Shown here piece by piece: positions 37,481 to 53,710 of a stretch of 64,000 bases of DNA. Where the stretch lies: positions 576,001 through 640,000 of the forward strand of contig OY970172.1 in assembly GCA_963707655.1 (NCBI GenBank), written 5' to 3'. A program made the position numbers and the translations under genes. Below the pieces are notes generated by a model that made no database searches, was not told the origin of the DNA, and saw only the letters and a list, made by a program, of their open reading frames with translations. This stretch comes from an uncultured bacterium. GTDB taxonomy: Bacteria > Babelota > Babeliae > Babelales > Vermiphilaceae. Numbering within the stretch: position 1 is the stretch's first letter; every line of letters begins with the position of its first letter.

Positions 37481-37804
37481 ATGACGCTTCTCTCTATCTG
37501 CTTATCAGTTATTAGCGGTATCGGAGCGAGCCTAGTTTATAGACTCTTCTTCTTGTTACAGAGAAGAAGAGTCTTTTTCTTGGCAATGCGACAACAAGAC
37601 AATCAAACTTCATTGTCCGACATGAAACGAAACCTATTACTTTCGTTTTTTTTCGCACTCATCCGAATCATATTTCTTGCAATGGTCTTTAGATATCTAT
37701 TGCTATCATCACCAAACCATTTTATAATCGTAGCATTATCTTTTTTTATAACATGGTTAATCCTTATTGTGTTGCATAAGGAAAAATTTGATGCAAGAGA
37801 CTAA
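37481..37804 (+). CDS. Small membrane protein, AtpI/AtpR-like
   Basis: Three to four TMs with LIRIIFL; immediately upstream of atpB. Confidence 0.55.
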   Translation: MTLLSICLSVISGIGASLVYRLFFLLQRRRVFFLAMRQQDNQTSLSDMKRNLLLSFFFALIRIIFLAMVFRYLLLSSPNHFIIVALSFFITWLILIVLHKEKFDARD

Positions 37805-38534
37805 TTTTTTACAAACTCATACGTGGCAGCCCTTTGCGCGATTTACCACACATCCTTTTTTTACCGTTAATCGCGAGACGATTATAAGTACGTGGATTGT
37901 GCTCGCCCTTCTTTTAGTTATTGGTGCTCTGATATGGTTCGTACTGAGAAGACCAAATGGCATAGCCCGCTATCTTATTTTTTCAGGTGCGCAAGCATTC
38001 ATCGATCTCACCACACAAACATTGGGATCGCTTCAAGCTCATCATTTTTACTTTTGCACCGCTCTTTTTTTATTTATCGCTTTATGTAATTGCATTACCT
38101 TATTGCCCTGGACAGAAGAGCCAACGGCCGATATAAACACGACACTGGCCATGGGGCTTATCTCATTCTTTTATGTTCAATGGTATGCAATCCGAGCGCA
38201 CGGCATAGGTGCCTATTTAAAAGAATATGTCTCCCCCGTGTTTGTTATGTTGCCGCTCCACGTTATCGGTAAGCTTTCTTCAATCATTTCATTGTCATTT
38301 CGTCTGTTCGGTAATATTTTTGGCGGTTCGGTAATTGCGCGCATTTATCTTTCGTTTATTAAGGGCTCATTAATTCTAGAGCCATTGGGAATGCCACTGA
38401 ATATTGCTATCACGCTCTTTTTTGTGCTCTTTGAAGGATTATTACAAGCGTTTGTTTTTTCTATGCTCTCACTCACCTATCTTTCAATTGCAGTATCGCA
38501 TGAAGAAACAACACAAATCGGAGACCTTCCATGA
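37791..38534 (+). CDS. atpB: F0F1 ATP synthase subunit a
   Basis: PTADINTT, SLSFRLFGNIFGG (essential Arg), LQAFVFSMLSLTY. Confidence 0.96.
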   Translation: MQETNFLQTHTWQPFARFTTHPFFTVNRETIISTWIVLALLLVIGALIWFVLRRPNGIARYLIFSGAQAFIDLTTQTLGSLQAHHFYFCTALFLFIALCNCITLLPWTEEPTADINTTLAMGLISFFYVQWYAIRAHGIGAYLKEYVSPVFVMLPLHVIGKLSSIISLSFRLFGNIFGGSVIARIYLSFIKGSLILEPLGMPLNIAITLFFVLFEGLLQAFVFSMLSLTYLSIAVSHEETTQIGDLP

Positions 38535-39481
38535 TAGAATGGGCAGAATTTTTGCATTACGGCACCATTGCTCTTTTGGTCTGCATAAGTGCTATTGGCG
38601 TTGGTCTTGGCCAGGGCCTTATCGGCATTGAAGCGCTCAGGGCCATGCATATACAACCGCAAGCATCACTTGATATGATTCGCCTTTGTGTATTGGGTAT
38701 GGCACTTCTTGAATTTGCCGCTATTTCAGGCTTTACTCTTGCGCTGTTTATTTTATTTACCAATCCCAACATAACTTTATATGGAAGCATTGCTGAATTG
38801 GGTGTTGCTGCTGCTCTGGCAATAACCGGTCTAGCCATTGGGTTTGCCTCATATTTTCCCGCAAGCAGCGCATGCAAAGCACTCGCGCGCCAACCATTTT
38901 TTGGCCAACAAATTGTGCGCTTTATGCTTCTCAGCCAATCAACTATTCAAACTCCTCTTGTTTTCAGTTTTATTATTGCCATGTTTATCAAAACACAAAT
39001 TGCTACCGTAACAACGTTGCCCGATGCACTTCGCGTGCTTGCCAGTGGGCTATGCATAGGTGTCGGCAGCATTGGCCCTGCACTGGGCATTGCTCATTTT
39101 GCAAAGATCGCCTGTGAAAGCATTGGCATTAATCGCGCTGCCTATCCAAAGCTACTCTCTTTTACCTTCATCAGTCAGGCAATTATAGAAACACCGGTCC
39201 TTTTTGCCCTACTTATCTCTTTAATACTTTTGGGCACAACGGTGAATGACAATCTTCTTGCAAGCATCGGGCTGTTCAGCGCTGCCATGTGCGCCGCGGT
39301 AGGAACCTTTGGCCCCGGATTCAGCTCGGGAAGAATCGCCGGAGCCGCCTGTAAACAAATTGCAATAGCGCCGGAAAATCATTCTTACCTTGCTCGCATA
39401 AGTATGTTTGGCCAAGGAATGGTTGATACCGGATCAATCTATGCTTTTTTAATCGCAATTTTGTTATATTTCTTTAGGTAA
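38531..39481 (+). CDS. atpE: ATP synthase subunit c with four fused hairpins (8 TM)
   Basis: Four ~79-aa repeats with Gly-rich inner helix, loops IQP/RQP/INR/IAP and E61/Q140/E220/D299; ATGA overlap with atpB. Confidence 0.92.
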   Translation: MIEWAEFLHYGTIALLVCISAIGVGLGQGLIGIEALRAMHIQPQASLDMIRLCVLGMALLEFAAISGFTLALFILFTNPNITLYGSIAELGVAAALAITGLAIGFASYFPASSACKALARQPFFGQQIVRFMLLSQSTIQTPLVFSFIIAMFIKTQIATVTTLPDALRVLASGLCIGVGSIGPALGIAHFAKIACESIGINRAAYPKLLSFTFISQAIIETPVLFALLISLILLGTTVNDNLLASIGLFSAAMCAAVGTFGPGFSSGRIAGAACKQIAIAPENHSYLARISMFGQGMVDTGSIYAFLIAILLYFFR

Positions 39482-39512
39482 AAATAGTGAAGCAAAAAAA
39501 GGAGCAACCCAC

Positions 39513-41669
39513 ATGCATAGCCAAGCACACGTAAGCAAAGAGCATCAGTCTCTTATCAAAAAAATAATCATGATTTTTGGTATCGTTGGATTTTGTTTTT
39601 TTCTTTTTTTTACCACTAATTTTTTTAGGGTAAGACAACAGATCAGTAATGACGCGTATGCGCGCGCGGAACAGAAAAACAAAGCAATAGCTGATTATAT
39701 CTCAAAAAACATTGCGCAACTCAATCCATTGGTCCTTTCGCTCAAGCAACAAATAGAGCGCGATGGAGCCAATCAATCGGCTATTATTGAATATTTACAA
39801 AAAAAACCGGTAGAAGTAAGCGGCTTGGGAGTTATTGTTAATTCACCGTGGTACGCCCCTTATTACGGCGAACATGAAGACAAGCAGGTTTTACAGAATC
39901 TGCCGCAATCAATAATGCATACCGATTGGTATAAGCAGGCAATGGCTGAAAAGAAAGAAATTTCAGGACTTTTTTTTGATGAAGAAACTAACCAGCCAAT
40001 TTTTTATACCATAGCTCCGTTTTACCTCAAGGCAAACCCGCAACAGCCAGCCGGCATTGTTTTTGCCACTCAATCAATGGCACATATACGCCACATTCTC
40101 TCTACGCTTTATACTGATAACACCGGTTACTGTTTTTTACTTGACCAACAAGGTGCTATTCTTGCTCATCCGGAAAACTTTTGGGTACGTACCAAACAAA
40201 CTATCATAGAGCTGGCAAACAAAGTAAACAATCAAAAATTGATCAGCAAAGCAGAATCAGCGCGAAGCAGCGGCTCTTCTTTTATGCATTATCACAATGA
40301 AATGACTGGCGACCGCTCATGGCTTTTTTTCACCAAAATTCCTGCAACCAATTGGCTTCTTGCCAGCGTTGTTGACATGCGCGAGCTACCATTGAGCGGA
40401 GATTTTTTACGCCATAATCTTCTGTTGATTACCATCAGCTTTATTGTGATGCTGCTGTGCGCTCTTTTATTGCTTCCCCCGCTATATAAACATCCCCATC
40501 ACATCCTGCTTTGGATCATCAGCGGAGCGGTCAGCATGCTCTTTGTCTTGGGCATTGCCAGTGCGTGGATTCTTTCTATTCAATTTCCCCGCACTGAAAA
40601 AGATGCTCTTGCTATTGAGAACAAAGCGCAATTATACAAGCTCTTGGATACATTTGAAGAGGCGTACAAAGGAAAACTTGATGAAAAAAATATCGCACCT
40701 GAAAGTAATGATTATGCACAATTGTTGGCATACCGCTATAAAGACAAAAATTATGTACCAACCGGCATTATCATTAATGATATGCAATTTAACCCGCACG
40801 ATCAGATAGAATTTGTTGGCTTTATTTGGCAACGCTATTTTGATGGCATTCATGATTCTGTTGATCGTGGTTTTATTTTGCCTCAGGCAACGCACAAAAC
40901 AACTATTACTGAAATTGGCCGCACCAAACATGAAAAAGCCGAGACAATCATGTGGCAAGTGCAGGCGCAGTTAAATCAAAACTTGAGCTATAGCGCTTTC
41001 CCTTTTGATATAAAAAATATAAAAATTCAGATGCGCCACAAAGATTTTGAAAAAAATATTATTTTAGTACCGGATTTAGATGCGTATAAAATTATAAACC
41101 CTGCCGCACTGCCCGCCATTGGTCAGGATACTCATCTTGACGGTTGGCATCTTTTAAAGAGCTACTTTGATTATGAAATAGAAACCTATTTAACCAACTT
41201 TGGCCTCTACGGCTATGGTCCTTTTGGTATTTATGATGAAGCGCCGCTTTCCCAGGTTCCTGAATTGCGGCTCAATGTAGTGGCTCAGCGCTATTTATTG
41301 GATACAATCTTAACCGACCTTCTCGCCTTATGCGTGATTGCCGTTATTTTATTTGTTTTACTTCTTACCTATTTCTCTGAAAAGAAATTTGAATTTATTC
41401 TAGAAACATGCGCCGCCGCGTTTTTTAGCTCCGTATTTGCGCAAATTCAATTTAGAGCCAAGATTTTTTCACACGAATTTGTTTATTTTGAAATCTTCTA
41501 TTTTACGCTGTATCTCGCCATTATTTTGATTTTGATTACTACGTTGATTCATATGTTTAAAATGAACGTCCCTTTGATCCGCTACGATAGCAACATTATA
41601 ACCAAATTACTGTATTGGCCATTCATTCTGGGAGTTATCTGGAGTGTGACCATGGTGTATTTGTATTGA
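39513..41669 (+). CDS. Cache-domain-fused pentameric ligand-gated ion channel homologue
   Basis: TM, Cache-like periplasmic region (DWYKQA, GYCFLLDQQGAILAHP, TNWLLA), two TMs, ECD with YSAFPFD, then four C-terminal TMs after AQR. Confidence 0.8.
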   Translation: MHSQAHVSKEHQSLIKKIIMIFGIVGFCFFLFFTTNFFRVRQQISNDAYARAEQKNKAIADYISKNIAQLNPLVLSLKQQIERDGANQSAIIEYLQKKPVEVSGLGVIVNSPWYAPYYGEHEDKQVLQNLPQSIMHTDWYKQAMAEKKEISGLFFDEETNQPIFYTIAPFYLKANPQQPAGIVFATQSMAHIRHILSTLYTDNTGYCFLLDQQGAILAHPENFWVRTKQTIIELANKVNNQKLISKAESARSSGSSFMHYHNEMTGDRSWLFFTKIPATNWLLASVVDMRELPLSGDFLRHNLLLITISFIVMLLCALLLLPPLYKHPHHILLWIISGAVSMLFVLGIASAWILSIQFPRTEKDALAIENKAQLYKLLDTFEEAYKGKLDEKNIAPESNDYAQLLAYRYKDKNYVPTGIIINDMQFNPHDQIEFVGFIWQRYFDGIHDSVDRGFILPQATHKTTITEIGRTKHEKAETIMWQVQAQLNQNLSYSAFPFDIKNIKIQMRHKDFEKNIILVPDLDAYKIINPAALPAIGQDTHLDGWHLLKSYFDYEIETYLTNFGLYGYGPFGIYDEAPLSQVPELRLNVVAQRYLLDTILTDLLALCVIAVILFVLLLTYFSEKKFEFILETCAAAFFSSVFAQIQFRAKIFSHEFVYFEIFYFTLYLAIILILITTLIHMFKMNVPLIRYDSNIITKLLYWPFILGVIWSVTMVYLY

Positions 41670-41945
41670 AAAAAACGGAGAAGGATCTAATTCTACCCGC
41701 ATAGTTTGCGTTAAAAATTCAATTTTTTTGTCCGCCTGATCATCATAGGCTTTTCTATCCGCTATTGTTGCGATAGCAAATGCATGTAATGCTGGGTCAA
41801 TACCTTCATTGAATCTGGCGGCTATGAGCTGGCAATATTTTTTTAGAGATAATTGTGAAGCTTTTTCCAATAATGATTTGTCATCATCCATAGCATGAGC
41901 ATTTAAAATAGTTATGGCTACAAGGAGCAATAATTTATTTTTCAT
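41607..41945 (-). CDS. Small secreted hypothetical protein
   Basis: MKNKLLLLVAITILNAHA followed by MDDDK; 3' end overlaps the convergent channel gene. Confidence 0.55.
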   Translation of the reverse strand: MKNKLLLLVAITILNAHAMDDDKSLLEKASQLSLKKYCQLIAARFNEGIDPALHAFAIATIADRKAYDDQADKKIEFLTQTMRVELDPSPFFSIQIHHGHTPDNSQNEWPIQ

Positions 41946-42095
41946 AAAAGCTCTTCCTAAAGAAAAACAATTGAAACAATCTCGTTTCAGATTGTACCTA
42001 TCTATGATAATTTTGAAAAGAAAACATGTGTTTCTTGAAGAAGTTATTCGGGAATAGGTCTCAAGCACTTGATAATGTATAAGCTATTGAAAATA

Positions 42096-43975: not shown

Positions 43976-44008
43976 TATCATAAGTAACTTAATTAAATGG
44001 AGGTTATT

Positions 44009-44476
44009 ATGAAAAACAAATTACTCTTATTGGGTTTAACCCTATTCACCGTTCCTGTTATGCAGGCAAATGTTTTTACCAGAGCATGTGCTACAATCTT
44101 GAAATCCGGTACCAAATTCACCTTTTTCGGTACTGCGGGATTAGTGGGCAGCCATTACCAGCTCTTGCTAGAAGCGAAAAATGATTTTTTATTCTACAAG
44201 ATGCATAATAGGCTAAACCAACATGAAGAAAGAATCTCATCATTAGAATATAGAGTGCAGCAACTAGAGACAGGAAAGCCTGCTCAGGTTGGGCAACCTA
44301 AACCACAAATTGCTGACAATAATATGGGCAAAAAATTCTGGCAATGGGGAGAATCCCTCGTGACCGAAGAAAATGTTGCACTCGTAACGGCAAACATAGA
44401 AGCAATAAAATATAGCGGCCAGAAATATGGGGAACGCTTCGTTGATGCAGTAACCCAAAGGCCAAAAAAATTATAA
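44009..44476 (+). CDS. Secreted coiled-coil hypothetical protein
   Basis: GGAGG RBS; MKNKLLLLGLTLFTVPVMQA; HEERISSLEYRVQQLE. Confidence 0.75.
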   Translation: MKNKLLLLGLTLFTVPVMQANVFTRACATILKSGTKFTFFGTAGLVGSHYQLLLEAKNDFLFYKMHNRLNQHEERISSLEYRVQQLETGKPAQVGQPKPQIADNNMGKKFWQWGESLVTEENVALVTANIEAIKYSGQKYGERFVDAVTQRPKKL

Positions 44477-52294: not shown

Positions 52295-53710
52295 ATGAAA
52301 TTACCGAAAATAACCAGAAAAAATATAACTATCGCGAGCAGCATCGTCATAGCAATTTGTGCTCTGGCACTTGCATACACCATATACGATTATATGACAA
52401 CGCATCACAAGCAAAAGGCAAGGCTCCATGAAACAAAAACATTTGTACCGCAAGCAGAAGCCCAATCAACGCAAGATTTAGCTATCATTTTGCAGAAAAA
52501 AATAATTCGCGCTTTGCTATTGGGGACTGCAATACTCTTTTTACTCAGCATCATGCTATCAAAAGCGTATACGGGCAATAGACATTCATTATGGTTTTTG
52601 GCTATTTTTTTCTCTCTGCTTTTGGCCGCTGACATTGTTGTTATCTGGTATTTCGAAGTACGATTGGCACGTTTAAAAATGCAAAGCAATATTGTAGAAA
52701 ACGACGCCGATGTAGAAAAATTTTTTGAGATACATAGGGCTCAAAACCCTAACATTTATGAAGGAAAATTTCATTACGTACCTATCGGATTTCTTTGGTA
52801 TTCAATAATACTCAATGAGAAGATTCAAGGGGACATTGGAGATGTGCATTTATATTCCTATCCCTGGATAACGTATGATCTTTCCACAGACAAAGAACTT
52901 AAAGAGAAGATCGATAAGAATATTAATGCCGGCGTTTTTATTAGCATGAACGCTATTAATGAAATAAGATGGGCTCTTTCCGGGATCACCCAAGGCAATA
53001 AATATGTATTGAATTGGCAAGAAGATATAGCTCTTCATACTGATTTCAATTACAGAAAATATCCTTTTGATCAGCAACAAATTATTATACGTTTTGAACA
53101 TTATGACTCGCTCACAAGAATTATGCTTCTTCCCGACTTTGAAGCATACAAGATGGCCACCACCAAATATCCCCCCATCGATAAAAATATCAACTTGTCG
53201 GGCTGGAAAATTACCAATGCCTATTTTTGTTATGTTTTAAGCAATTACTCAACCGATTTTGGCATAAAAAATTATTGGCAAGTTAAAAACTATCCCTTTC
53301 TAACATACATTATTCAAATTCAACGTAATTTTACCGAACCGCTCGTTACTGGACTGCTACCTATACTTATTATTCTTTTTATTATTTTTGCGAGTCTACT
53401 CATACTCTCAAAAGTAACGAGTCCAAAAGATACAATTAACGGTATTCTCGCGTTACTTTCAAGTCTTTTTTTCGCCAATTTGATTTCTTATCAAACCTTG
53501 CAAAATACTATATTGTCGCCCAGCATAACCTACTTTAAATTATTTTATATCATAACGTACGTTATTATTTTTGTTGCAACCACGAATTGCTTGCTCTACG
53601 TATATAAACCAAATTCGTTTCTACATTATGATAAAAATTTTATTTCACGATTACTCTACTGGCCCGTGGTTATGACAATTTTTTTTGTTATAACACTTAT
53701 CTTTTTTTAA
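52295..53710 (+). CDS. pLGIC homologue with 3 extra N-terminal TMs
   Basis: FNYRKYPFDQQ, LSGW, IQIQR..GLLP (M1), then M2-M4. Confidence 0.8.
   Translation: MKLPKITRKNITIASSIVIAICALALAYTIYDYMTTHHKQKARLHETKTFVPQAEAQSTQDLAIILQKKIIRALLLGTAILFLLSIMLSKAYTGNRHSLWFLAIFFSLLLAADIVVIWYFEVRLARLKMQSNIVENDADVEKFFEIHRAQNPNIYEGKFHYVPIGFLWYSIILNEKIQGDIGDVHLYSYPWITYDLSTDKELKEKIDKNINAGVFISMNAINEIRWALSGITQGNKYVLNWQEDIALHTDFNYRKYPFDQQQIIIRFEHYDSLTRIMLLPDFEAYKMATTKYPPIDKNINLSGWKITNAYFCYVLSNYSTDFGIKNYWQVKNYPFLTYIIQIQRNFTEPLVTGLLPILIILFIIFASLLILSKVTSPKDTINGILALLSSLFFANLISYQTLQNTILSPSITYFKLFYIITYVIIFVATTNCLLYVYKPNSFLHYDKNFISRLLYWPVVMTIFFVITLIFF

Follow-up and report, generated by a model that had tools for sequence, protein, structure and literature searches.

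A putative pentameric ligand-gated ion channel subunit with a fused Cache sensor in an uncultured bacterium of the Babelota

Introduction

Can a bacterial protein that joins a chemoreceptor-type sensor to a channel module, and that lacks a proline whose replacement silences a related channel, still work as a ligand-gated ion channel? The question is raised by a single gene in a stretch of 64,000 nt (hereafter the window) corresponding to positions 576,001-640,000 of contig OY970172.1 in assembly GCA_963707655.1, which belongs to an uncultured bacterium of the Babelota (Vermiphilaceae). The gene encodes a protein of 718 amino acids (aa), here called P0001. An earlier reading of the DNA letters alone, referred to below as the original prediction, took it for a Cache-sensor-fused pentameric ligand-gated ion channel (pLGIC). 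The host genome consists of one contig of 1,091,075 bases, is 88.59% complete as judged by marker genes, and has Candidatus Dependentiae as its nearest named relatives. To our knowledge, no physiological role has been established for prokaryotic pLGICs.

We examined the domain structure, family, genomic surroundings and possible function of P0001.

Results

Channel module

The predicted subunit consists, in this order, of a first transmembrane (TM) helix (TM1), a dCache_1 sensor, a TM2-TM3 hairpin, a beta-rich extracellular domain (ECD) and the helices M1-M4, which makes seven membrane helices. The original prediction had listed a TM helix, a Cache-like region, two TM helices, a beta-rich domain with the sequence YSAFPFD, an LDGW motif, an arginine preceding M1 (pre-M1 Arg) and four further TM helices, and all of them were found where they had been described.

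Two independent lines of evidence, a profile match and a fold match, assign the C-terminal half to the pLGIC superfamily. The A2 profile, a hidden Markov model (HMM) of 22 family sequences, was searched against the Protein Data Bank (PDB) and reached GLIC at E 2.7e-7, all 60 rows listed being GLIC chains. The alignment covers the Pro-loop, the GW motif, the pre-M1 Arg, M1 and M2 and continues into M3. The fold was predicted with AlphaFold2 as a monomer from a 22-sequence alignment (mean predicted local distance difference test, pLDDT, 80.4; predicted template modelling score, pTM, 0.69). Foldseek matched this model to whole GLIC chains with E of about 1e-9 and a target TM-score of about 0.70, and VIA-align superposed residues 412-718 on GLIC residues 14-315 with Z 19.6 and a root-mean-square deviation (rmsd) of 3.0 Å over 274 aligned residues. 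AlphaFold was trained on pLGICs; the profile match is independent of that. The original prediction had staked itself on the ECD modelling as a pLGIC beta-sandwich, and the superposition on GLIC bears this out. A homodimer prediction with two copies of residues 290-718 scored 0.01 against a mark of 0.42 and carries no weight for or against assembly.

The motifs read in the translation are those by which the superfamily is recognized. The superfamily is marked by the [F/Y]PxD motif, in which the proline at the tip of the beta6-beta7 loop is invariant, and the proline and aspartate of the Pro-loop, together with the pre-M1 Arg, are among its most conserved features (PMC4795631). In members of the superfamily the pre-M1 Arg forms a pair with the aspartate of the Pro-loop. 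We searched exhaustively with the C-terminal 358 residues of P0001 using HMMER and obtained 1359 representative clusters at E<=1e-3, with 588 at E<=1e-30. The family is large and mostly Cache-fused, and most of the 150 representatives listed are about 650-740 aa long. These 150, the orthologues, P0001 itself and its two paralogues were aligned to A2 by hmmalign, giving a set of 172 sequences from which the 461-aa entry P0007 (see below) was left out. The Pro-loop proline is present in all 172, the Pro-loop aspartate (D499) in 145 and the tryptophan of the GW motif (W545) in 155, while the pre-M1 position (R593) is arginine in 147 and lysine in 18. Since P497 is invariant and R593 is so widely shared, the occurrence of these motifs in P0001 is not due to chance. 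In M4, a tryptophan and a proline are near-invariant among the orthologues, the proline being found in 168 of the 172 family sequences.

Cache sensor

The sensor domain, flanked by TM1 and TM2 in a hydropathy scan, is the sole dCache_1 match in the host genome, and 20 of the 22 orthologues have such a match too. In the model, residues 40-290 form a mixed alpha/beta domain, and residues 45-296 were superposed by VIA-align on 3lib_H with Z 23.6 and rmsd 3.4 Å over 241 aligned residues, and the dCache structures of TlpA, McpX, PctA/C and Mlp24 gave Z values of 19-22. With the sequence alone, phmmer gave E values between 1e-4 and 1e-3 for 3lib, PctC and PctA; similarity to dCache_1 sensor structures overall lies between E 1e-4 and 4e-3. 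P0001 thus has in common with the dCache_1 sensors of chemoreceptors and kinases (mmHK1S-Z3, 3lib; PctA and PctC, 5ltx and 5ltv; Mlp24, 6ioq; TlpA, 6e09) both the double-Cache fold and the placement of the domain between two TM helices. What differs is the output, which is kinase or methyl-accepting chemotaxis protein (MCP) signalling in those proteins and a channel module here.

Could the ligand be an amino acid? The amino-acid motif of dCache_1AA domains comprises, in PctA numbering, Y121, R126, W128, Y144 and D173 (Gumerov et al. 2022, PMC8915833). When P0001 was aligned with PctA (5ltx) by phmmer, W128 was kept as W139, R126 was replaced by T137, Y144 by F155 and D173 by T186, and Y121 fell outside the aligned stretch. 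Unlike PctA, P0001 has therefore not kept the motif, and since most of its residues are replaced, it is unlikely that the ligand is a canonically bound alpha-amino acid. With R126, Y144 and D173 all substituted, we rejected this candidate.

Additional membrane helices

The hydropathy scan of P0001 found six strongly hydrophobic segments, which include M1, M3 and M4 and do not include the amphipathic M2. With TM1, TM2 and TM3 in place, the modelled topology is self-consistent, as it brings both the Cache domain and the ECD to the periplasmic side. In the linker that follows TM3, L374 is invariant across the 22 orthologues.

The TM2-TM3 hairpin is not peculiar to this protein. We applied a simple hydropathy rule to the 140 residues that precede the ECD in those 144 family sequences whose part upstream of the ECD measures 300 residues or more. 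Two hydrophobic segments were found in 132 of them; seven sequences had none, four had one and one had three. Sensor and channel are thus, as a rule in this family, joined by a TM hairpin. None of the three N-terminal helices is lost in the two Cache-less paralogues encoded in the window, in which a loop of about 30 residues takes the place of the Cache domain. This suggests that the extra helices are part of the membrane assembly rather than only a tether for the sensor. A keyword search of the literature, which was not exhaustive, found no report of a TM hairpin in Cache-fused pLGICs.

M1 proline and pore

As the original prediction had noticed, the usual M1 proline is absent from P0001 and present in both paralogues. 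The position is occupied by Ala605 (codon GCC, 41325-41327), whose alignment column also holds the second M1 proline of GLIC, numbered Pro-203 by Rienzo et al. (PMC4813548). The counts printed for this column in the 172 family sequences are 148 Pro, 10 Ala, 6 Thr, 3 Val, 2 Ser and 1 Arg. The orthologues without the proline are the closer relatives of P0001 and have Ala (P0004, P0005 and P0009-P0011) or Thr (P0006, P0012 and P0013) instead.

The GLIC mutants P203A, P203L and P203G gave no response, P203L being still present at the surface, and conventional mutants at the same position were non-functional in the nicotinic acetylcholine receptor and in 5-HT3 receptors (PMC4813548). The missing proline is a real caveat, because the very same substitution abolishes GLIC function. 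The M1 proline is the most conserved TM position of the superfamily, but only the Pro-loop proline is absolutely conserved (PMC4795631), and P0001 is for this reason an atypical member and not a non-member. Moreover, the orthologues lacking the proline keep the Pro-loop, the pre-M1 Arg, M2 and M4 at full length and at 40-72% identity. Judged by these sequences, loss of the M1 proline looks like a tolerated, inherited state and not like decay.

The register of the pore was derived from the GLIC profile alignment. The pore face predicted in this way consists of F628 (2'), T632 (6'), A635 (9'), S639 (13'), F642 (16') and Q646 (20'). Family sequences most often have Gly/Ser at 2', Ala/Ser/Thr at 6' (43, 33 and 30, together 106 of the 172), Ala/Gly at 9' (72 and 42, together 114), Val/Ser at 13' and Phe/Leu at 16'. 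With small or polar residues at 6', 9' and 13', the M2 pattern of P0001 is plausible for a pore-lining helix, whose hydrophobic narrowing would lie higher than the usual 9' Leu. The M1-M2 loop holds both Glu and Lys and varies in length within the family, and we make no call on ion selectivity.

Gene start, orthologues and occurrence of the family

The protein collection contains an entry of 461 aa, P0007, which is identical to residues 258-718 of the 718-aa open reading frame (ORF; window 40284-41669). A start at this point would leave out the Cache domain. We favour the start of the 718-aa protein because it is preceded by AGGAG at 39500-39504 and because the orthologues are full-length: they measure 700-724 aa, are colinear with P0001 from residue 1 and share 33-72% identity with it. 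Such colinear full-length orthologues, together with the presence of the family in 51 of the 151 genomes sampled from the phylum, indicate that the gene is maintained. The coordinates of all features are collected in Table 1. An NCBIfam scan of P0001 gave nothing usable (best match 17.9 bits against a cut-off of 700). A search of sequencing runs found no RNA run; its 13 rows were all metagenomes of DNA type with a share of at most 0.17, and they have no bearing on expression or habitat.

Table 1. Positions of the P0001 gene, its parts and its two paralogues in the window
Feature	Window position	Strand	Basis or remark
Shine-Dalgarno-like AGGAG	39500..39504	+	8 nt 5' of ATG, read directly
Whole gene, Cache-fused pLGIC-type subunit P0001	39513..41669	+	ORF, 718 aa, ATG, intact
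TM1, residues 17-39 (about)	39561..39629	+	hydropathy; AlphaFold helix 2-68, continuous with first Cache helix
Periplasmic dCache_1 sensor, residues 40-285	39630..40367	+	Pfam PF02743, E 8.7e-14, 52.1 bits (cut-off 45)
TM2, residues 296-324	40398..40484	+	hydropathy and AlphaFold; leads from Cache domain back into membrane
TM3, residues 330-357	40500..40583	+	hydropathy and AlphaFold; second hairpin arm, chain returns to periplasm
Linker with short helices 371-386 and 399-405 and low-confidence stretch 388-398	40584..40751	+	AlphaFold, pLDDT
Predicted pLGIC-type extracellular beta-sandwich, residues 414-593	40752..41291	+	AlphaFold strands (ten), GLIC superposition
Pro-loop YSAFPFD, residues 493-499, with P497	40989..41009	+	read in translation; F496-P497-F498-D499
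LDGW, residues 542-545	41136..41147	+	read in translation
Pre-M1 R593	41289..41291	+	aligns with GLIC pre-M1 Arg
M1, residues 595-619	41295..41369	+	AlphaFold helix, hydropathy
M2, residues 626-650, presumed pore-lining helix	41388..41462	+	AlphaFold; below hydropathy threshold; aligns with GLIC M2
M3, residues 660-681	41490..41555	+	hydropathy, AlphaFold, GLIC alignment
M4, residues 695-717, with conserved W702-P703	41595..41663	+	hydropathy, AlphaFold
Cache-less paralogue 1, P0002, 471 aa: TM1, short loop, TM2-TM3, ECD, four TM	52295..53710	+	M1 Pro present
Cache-less paralogue 2, P0003, 449 aa	53810..55159	+	in tandem with paralogue 1; M1 Pro present

Family members were found in 51 of the 151 sampled genomes of the phylum, the host genome included, and in 36 of the 55 belonging to the window's own family. 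Among the 51 positive genomes, 41 show one match, eight show two and two show three; P0001 and its Cache-less paralogues make three copies in the 1.09-Mb host genome. Outside this phylum the related loci are scattered, coming besides Dependentiae from Myxococcota, Alpha- and Gammaproteobacteria, Cyanobacteria, Bacteroidota, Chloroflexota, Thermodesulfobacteriota, Spirochaetia and the archaeon Methanolobus. An approximate, midpoint-rooted FastTree phylogeny was built from 32 ORFs of 30 of the 31 loci (a fragment, L044, was dropped) and the three window proteins. In it, P0001 forms a clade with the loci L014-L021 (support 1.0), the two paralogues are sisters of each other (support 1.0), and the pair is sister to that clade (support 0.84). 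The non-exhaustive keyword search returned no report of pLGICs in Dependentiae.

Some relatives are considerably longer. Members of 1322-1566 aa occur in the loci L028, L034, L041 and L043 (Chloroflexota) and as the proteins P0151 and P0164, the last two carrying two periplasmic binding-protein (PBP) domains (Bmp/PnrA-like and ABC_sub_bind) after M4, so that Cache, channel and two PBP domains are combined in one chain. P0128 (1282 aa) is extended by a TPR array at its N-terminus instead. In many Dependentiae genomes (G005, G006, G015, G021 and others) the module lies in open frames of about 1000-1130 aa, and in P0025 (1029 aa) the usual Cache domain is preceded by some 300 additional residues.

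Genomic neighbourhood

Directly upstream of the P0001 gene, on the same strand, lie atpB, encoding the a subunit of F-type ATPase, and a 316-aa gene of four fused c-subunit hairpins (c4). The c4 gene and the P0001 gene are separated by 31 nt in which no terminator-like site was found on the + strand. The same two genes stand upstream of the orthologue in all eight loci of the Dependentiae clade, whereas a or c genes are near none of the 23 loci outside it. In most of the eight clade loci the region is flanked by folC upstream and cysK downstream, and in five of them the distance from c4 to the channel gene is 1.2-4.7 kb. We regard the atpB-c4 neighbourhood as clade-wide synteny, and any indication of a functional link is weak at best.

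The ATPase genes of this genome may merit attention in themselves. The region at 37767-39481 (+) contains the only ATP-synt_A (PF00119) match of the genome, followed by c4, whose ion-binding position reads E, Q, E and D across the four hairpins. Another atp cluster, about 60 kb away (G000:C1:675-678 kb; L004, L010), lacks an a-subunit gene; its members are a single-hairpin c, two unassigned ORFs, delta and alpha. The second strong ATP-synt_ab match is located about 240 kb from the window. The atp operon is split, and its c subunits are of two kinds. A 107-aa hydrophobic ORF (37481-37804, +) occupies an AtpI-like position, with the folC-like gene on one side and atpB on the other; it matched no Pfam family and has weak tblastn relatives in three of eight related loci (L014, L017 and L018).

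On the opposite strand, a 153-aa ORF (41607-42068, -) overlaps the 3' end of the P0001 gene by 63 nt. After an internal Met it has a signal-peptide-like stretch similar to the N-terminus of a 159-aa ORF at 43997-44476 (+). The two may represent a small family of secreted proteins; the locus search gave only a 22-residue match in L015. The pair of paralogue genes is preceded by a TonB-C-like gene on its 5' side and followed by a gene for an ABC ATPase on its 3' side.

Discussion

Relation to known proteins

That Cache domains occur fused to bacterial pLGICs was known, as the original prediction stated: Tasneem et al. (Genome Biol 2005, PMC549065) described bacterial and archaeal ART-LGICs fused to MCP-N/Cache domains in Methanosarcina, Cytophaga and Microbulbifer. 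Those proteins have the same order of globular parts as P0001, a Cache-type sensor N-terminal to the ligand-binding domain (LBD) and four TM helices, and an equally scattered distribution. Related taxa recur among our loci (Methanolobus, L025; Cyclobacteriaceae, L027; Gammaproteobacteria), and both groups are known from sequence only. The family of P0001 is probably the MCP-N/Cache group of Tasneem et al., as judged by architecture and taxa. The available text of that paper speaks of extra domains between signal peptide and LBD and mentions no TM hairpin, which P0001 has, and the chemotaxis role proposed there does not fit the host genome.

Among channels of known structure, the one matched by both profile and fold is GLIC, the proton-gated channel of Gloeobacter violaceus (for example PDB 3ehz, 5heh and 6zgk). 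A YPFD-type Pro-loop, the GW motif and the pre-M1 Arg are common to GLIC and P0001, and their M1-M3 can be aligned; identity is 12-14%. Unlike P0001, GLIC has neither N-terminal TM helices nor a Cache domain, it has Pro-203 where P0001 has alanine, and it is described by Pfam models that do not match the P0001 family. The N-terminal domains of pLGICs are little known, DeCLIC being the sole partly characterised case (2025, PMC12664993). This channel, from a Desulfofustis-related deltaproteobacterium, is likewise prokaryotic and carries a large accessory domain in the periplasm, which in DeCLIC modulates gating. The DeCLIC N-terminal domain (NTD) consists of two calcium-binding periplasmic lobes, NTD1 and NTD2, whereas P0001 has a dCache_1 domain held between TM1 and TM2 and followed by TM3; the coupling route must therefore differ. 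No DeCLIC chain was among the matches listed in the Foldseek, VIA-align and A2 profile searches.

Possible mode of action

Taken together, we consider it rather probable that P0001 is a subunit of a pentameric pLGIC which is opened or modulated by a periplasmic small molecule. Assembly, ligand binding and gating are modelled here on established pLGICs and Cache sensors. Five subunits would assemble, as in other pLGICs, around a pore lined by M2. A periplasmic small molecule, other than a canonically bound alpha-amino acid, would bind the membrane-distal Cache pocket, and upon binding the C-terminal helix of the Cache domain and TM2 would move. The TM2-TM3 hairpin, packed on M1/M3/M4, could pass this movement on to the channel, or contacts between the Cache domain and the ECD could do so, or both, and the pore would thereby be opened or modulated. 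The output would be an ion flux instead of a chemotaxis signal: a metabolite derived from the host would shift the membrane potential or the ion balance. This last step is based on the host genome, in which neither MCPsignal nor CheW found a match (at 88.59% completeness), whereas each of the two did match in 8 of 14 control genomes.

Several observations weigh against such a channel. The most serious is Ala605, given that GLIC P203A yields no current, and it is the main reason why we do not rate channel function higher. Phenylalanine at the predicted 2' position, where Gly or Ser is usual, occurs in only 4 of the 172 family sequences and could narrow the cytoplasmic mouth of the pore. The fold evidence for the pLGIC module comes from a predicted monomer, and a single-sequence PDB search with the C-terminal half found no pLGIC, the best match being at chance level (E 0.54). 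Of the two HMM checks proposed in the original prediction, dCache_1 gave a match, as already described, and Neur_chan_LBD did not. Neither Neur_chan_LBD (PF02931) nor Neur_chan_memb (PF02932) matched P0001 in Pfam at E up to 0.1, or its C-terminal half and the two paralogues at E up to 1. They also failed to match the 40 representatives scanned, which were picked from the 150 listed for unusual length with some typical ones added, and were not among the 25 of 35 Pfam families listed for the 22 orthologues. A search of the host genome with PF02931 found none, and the same search also missed all control genomes. We see in this failure a limit of the Pfam models and not a defining biological feature.

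Alternative explanations

How far do these objections reach? If P0001 derived from pLGICs and no longer gated in the canonical way, it might be a non-conducting sensor or scaffold, a constitutively leaky channel, or a channel driven by its hairpin. The alignment of Ala605 with Pro-203, the silence of all three GLIC mutants and the rare 2' Phe speak for this, and absence of the M1 proline from 24 of the 172 family sequences makes it a recurrent minority state. The orthologues without the proline are nevertheless unlike a decaying module, being full-length and well conserved with all signatures in place, and the superfamily as a whole is absolutely strict only about the Pro-loop proline. We therefore hold loss of canonical gating to be unlikely, though it deserves to be kept in mind. 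The two paralogues offer another solution, compatible with a ligand-gated channel: heteropentamers in which the Cache-bearing subunit is regulatory and the Cache-less ones, encoded 11 kb downstream, are competent to form the pore. Three family copies in so small a genome, the retention of three N-terminal TM helices and the M1 proline by the paralogues, and their grouping with the Dependentiae Cache-fused clade are in keeping with this arrangement. On the other hand, the module of P0001 is only 27-30% identical to the paralogues, the genes are not adjacent, and 41 of the 51 positive genomes of the phylum show a single match, so that the Cache-fused form must usually work alone. We give mixed pentamers a low probability.

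A functional tie to the membrane sector of the F-type ATPase, for instance a regulated leak that sets the ion-motive force, is suggested by the same-strand c4 gene lying 31 nt away without an intervening terminator-like site, by atpB and c4 preceding the gene in every clade locus, and by PF00119 being matched nowhere else in the genome. But folC and cysK keep their order as well, which may be plain synteny, c4 and the channel gene are 1.2-4.7 kb apart in five of the eight loci, and outside the clade the association vanishes. We find such a tie very unlikely. There remains a chemotaxis receptor, the role proposed by Tasneem et al. for bacterial ART-LGICs. Cache domains are typical sensors of chemoreceptors, but the lack of any MCPsignal or CheW match in this single-contig genome leaves the idea with next to no probability, and for the host genome we rejected it.

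A pentameric channel under the control of a periplasmic ligand thus remains our preferred reading. We may go one step further, in what is a doubtful speculation, and imagine a distinct class of Pro-loop receptors with seven TM helices per subunit. In these, the Cache signal would reach the pore through the membrane hairpin, packed on the outer helices of the channel, and not through the classical agonist site in the ECD, which would explain the subclade without M1 proline. In Dependentiae, which live on ATP of their hosts, such a receptor, encoded beside the only gene for an Fo a subunit, would let a metabolite regulate the ion-motive force in the manner of a valve.

Significance

Compared with the literature found by keyword, our results add the size of the family, the failure of the Pfam models of pLGICs to match any member scanned, and the family-wide hairpin that makes a subunit of seven TM helices. 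They further add a natural subclade without M1 proline, a sensor from which the amino-acid motif is missing, and frequent presence in reduced genomes of Dependentiae, here in three copies. In scale, the family counts 1359 representative clusters, goes undetected by the Pfam models of pLGICs in the members scanned, and is mostly equipped with a type of sensor that is open to ligand screening. For the study of gating, the extra TM hairpin and the natural variants lacking a proline that mutagenesis calls essential provide two handles. The host itself offers a minimal background, an obligate intracellular lineage with a 1.09-Mb genome, one dCache_1 sensor and no chemotaxis match. For this reason ion flux itself is probably the output of the channel in this organism, which would make it a simple setting in which to learn what such a channel does for a bacterium.

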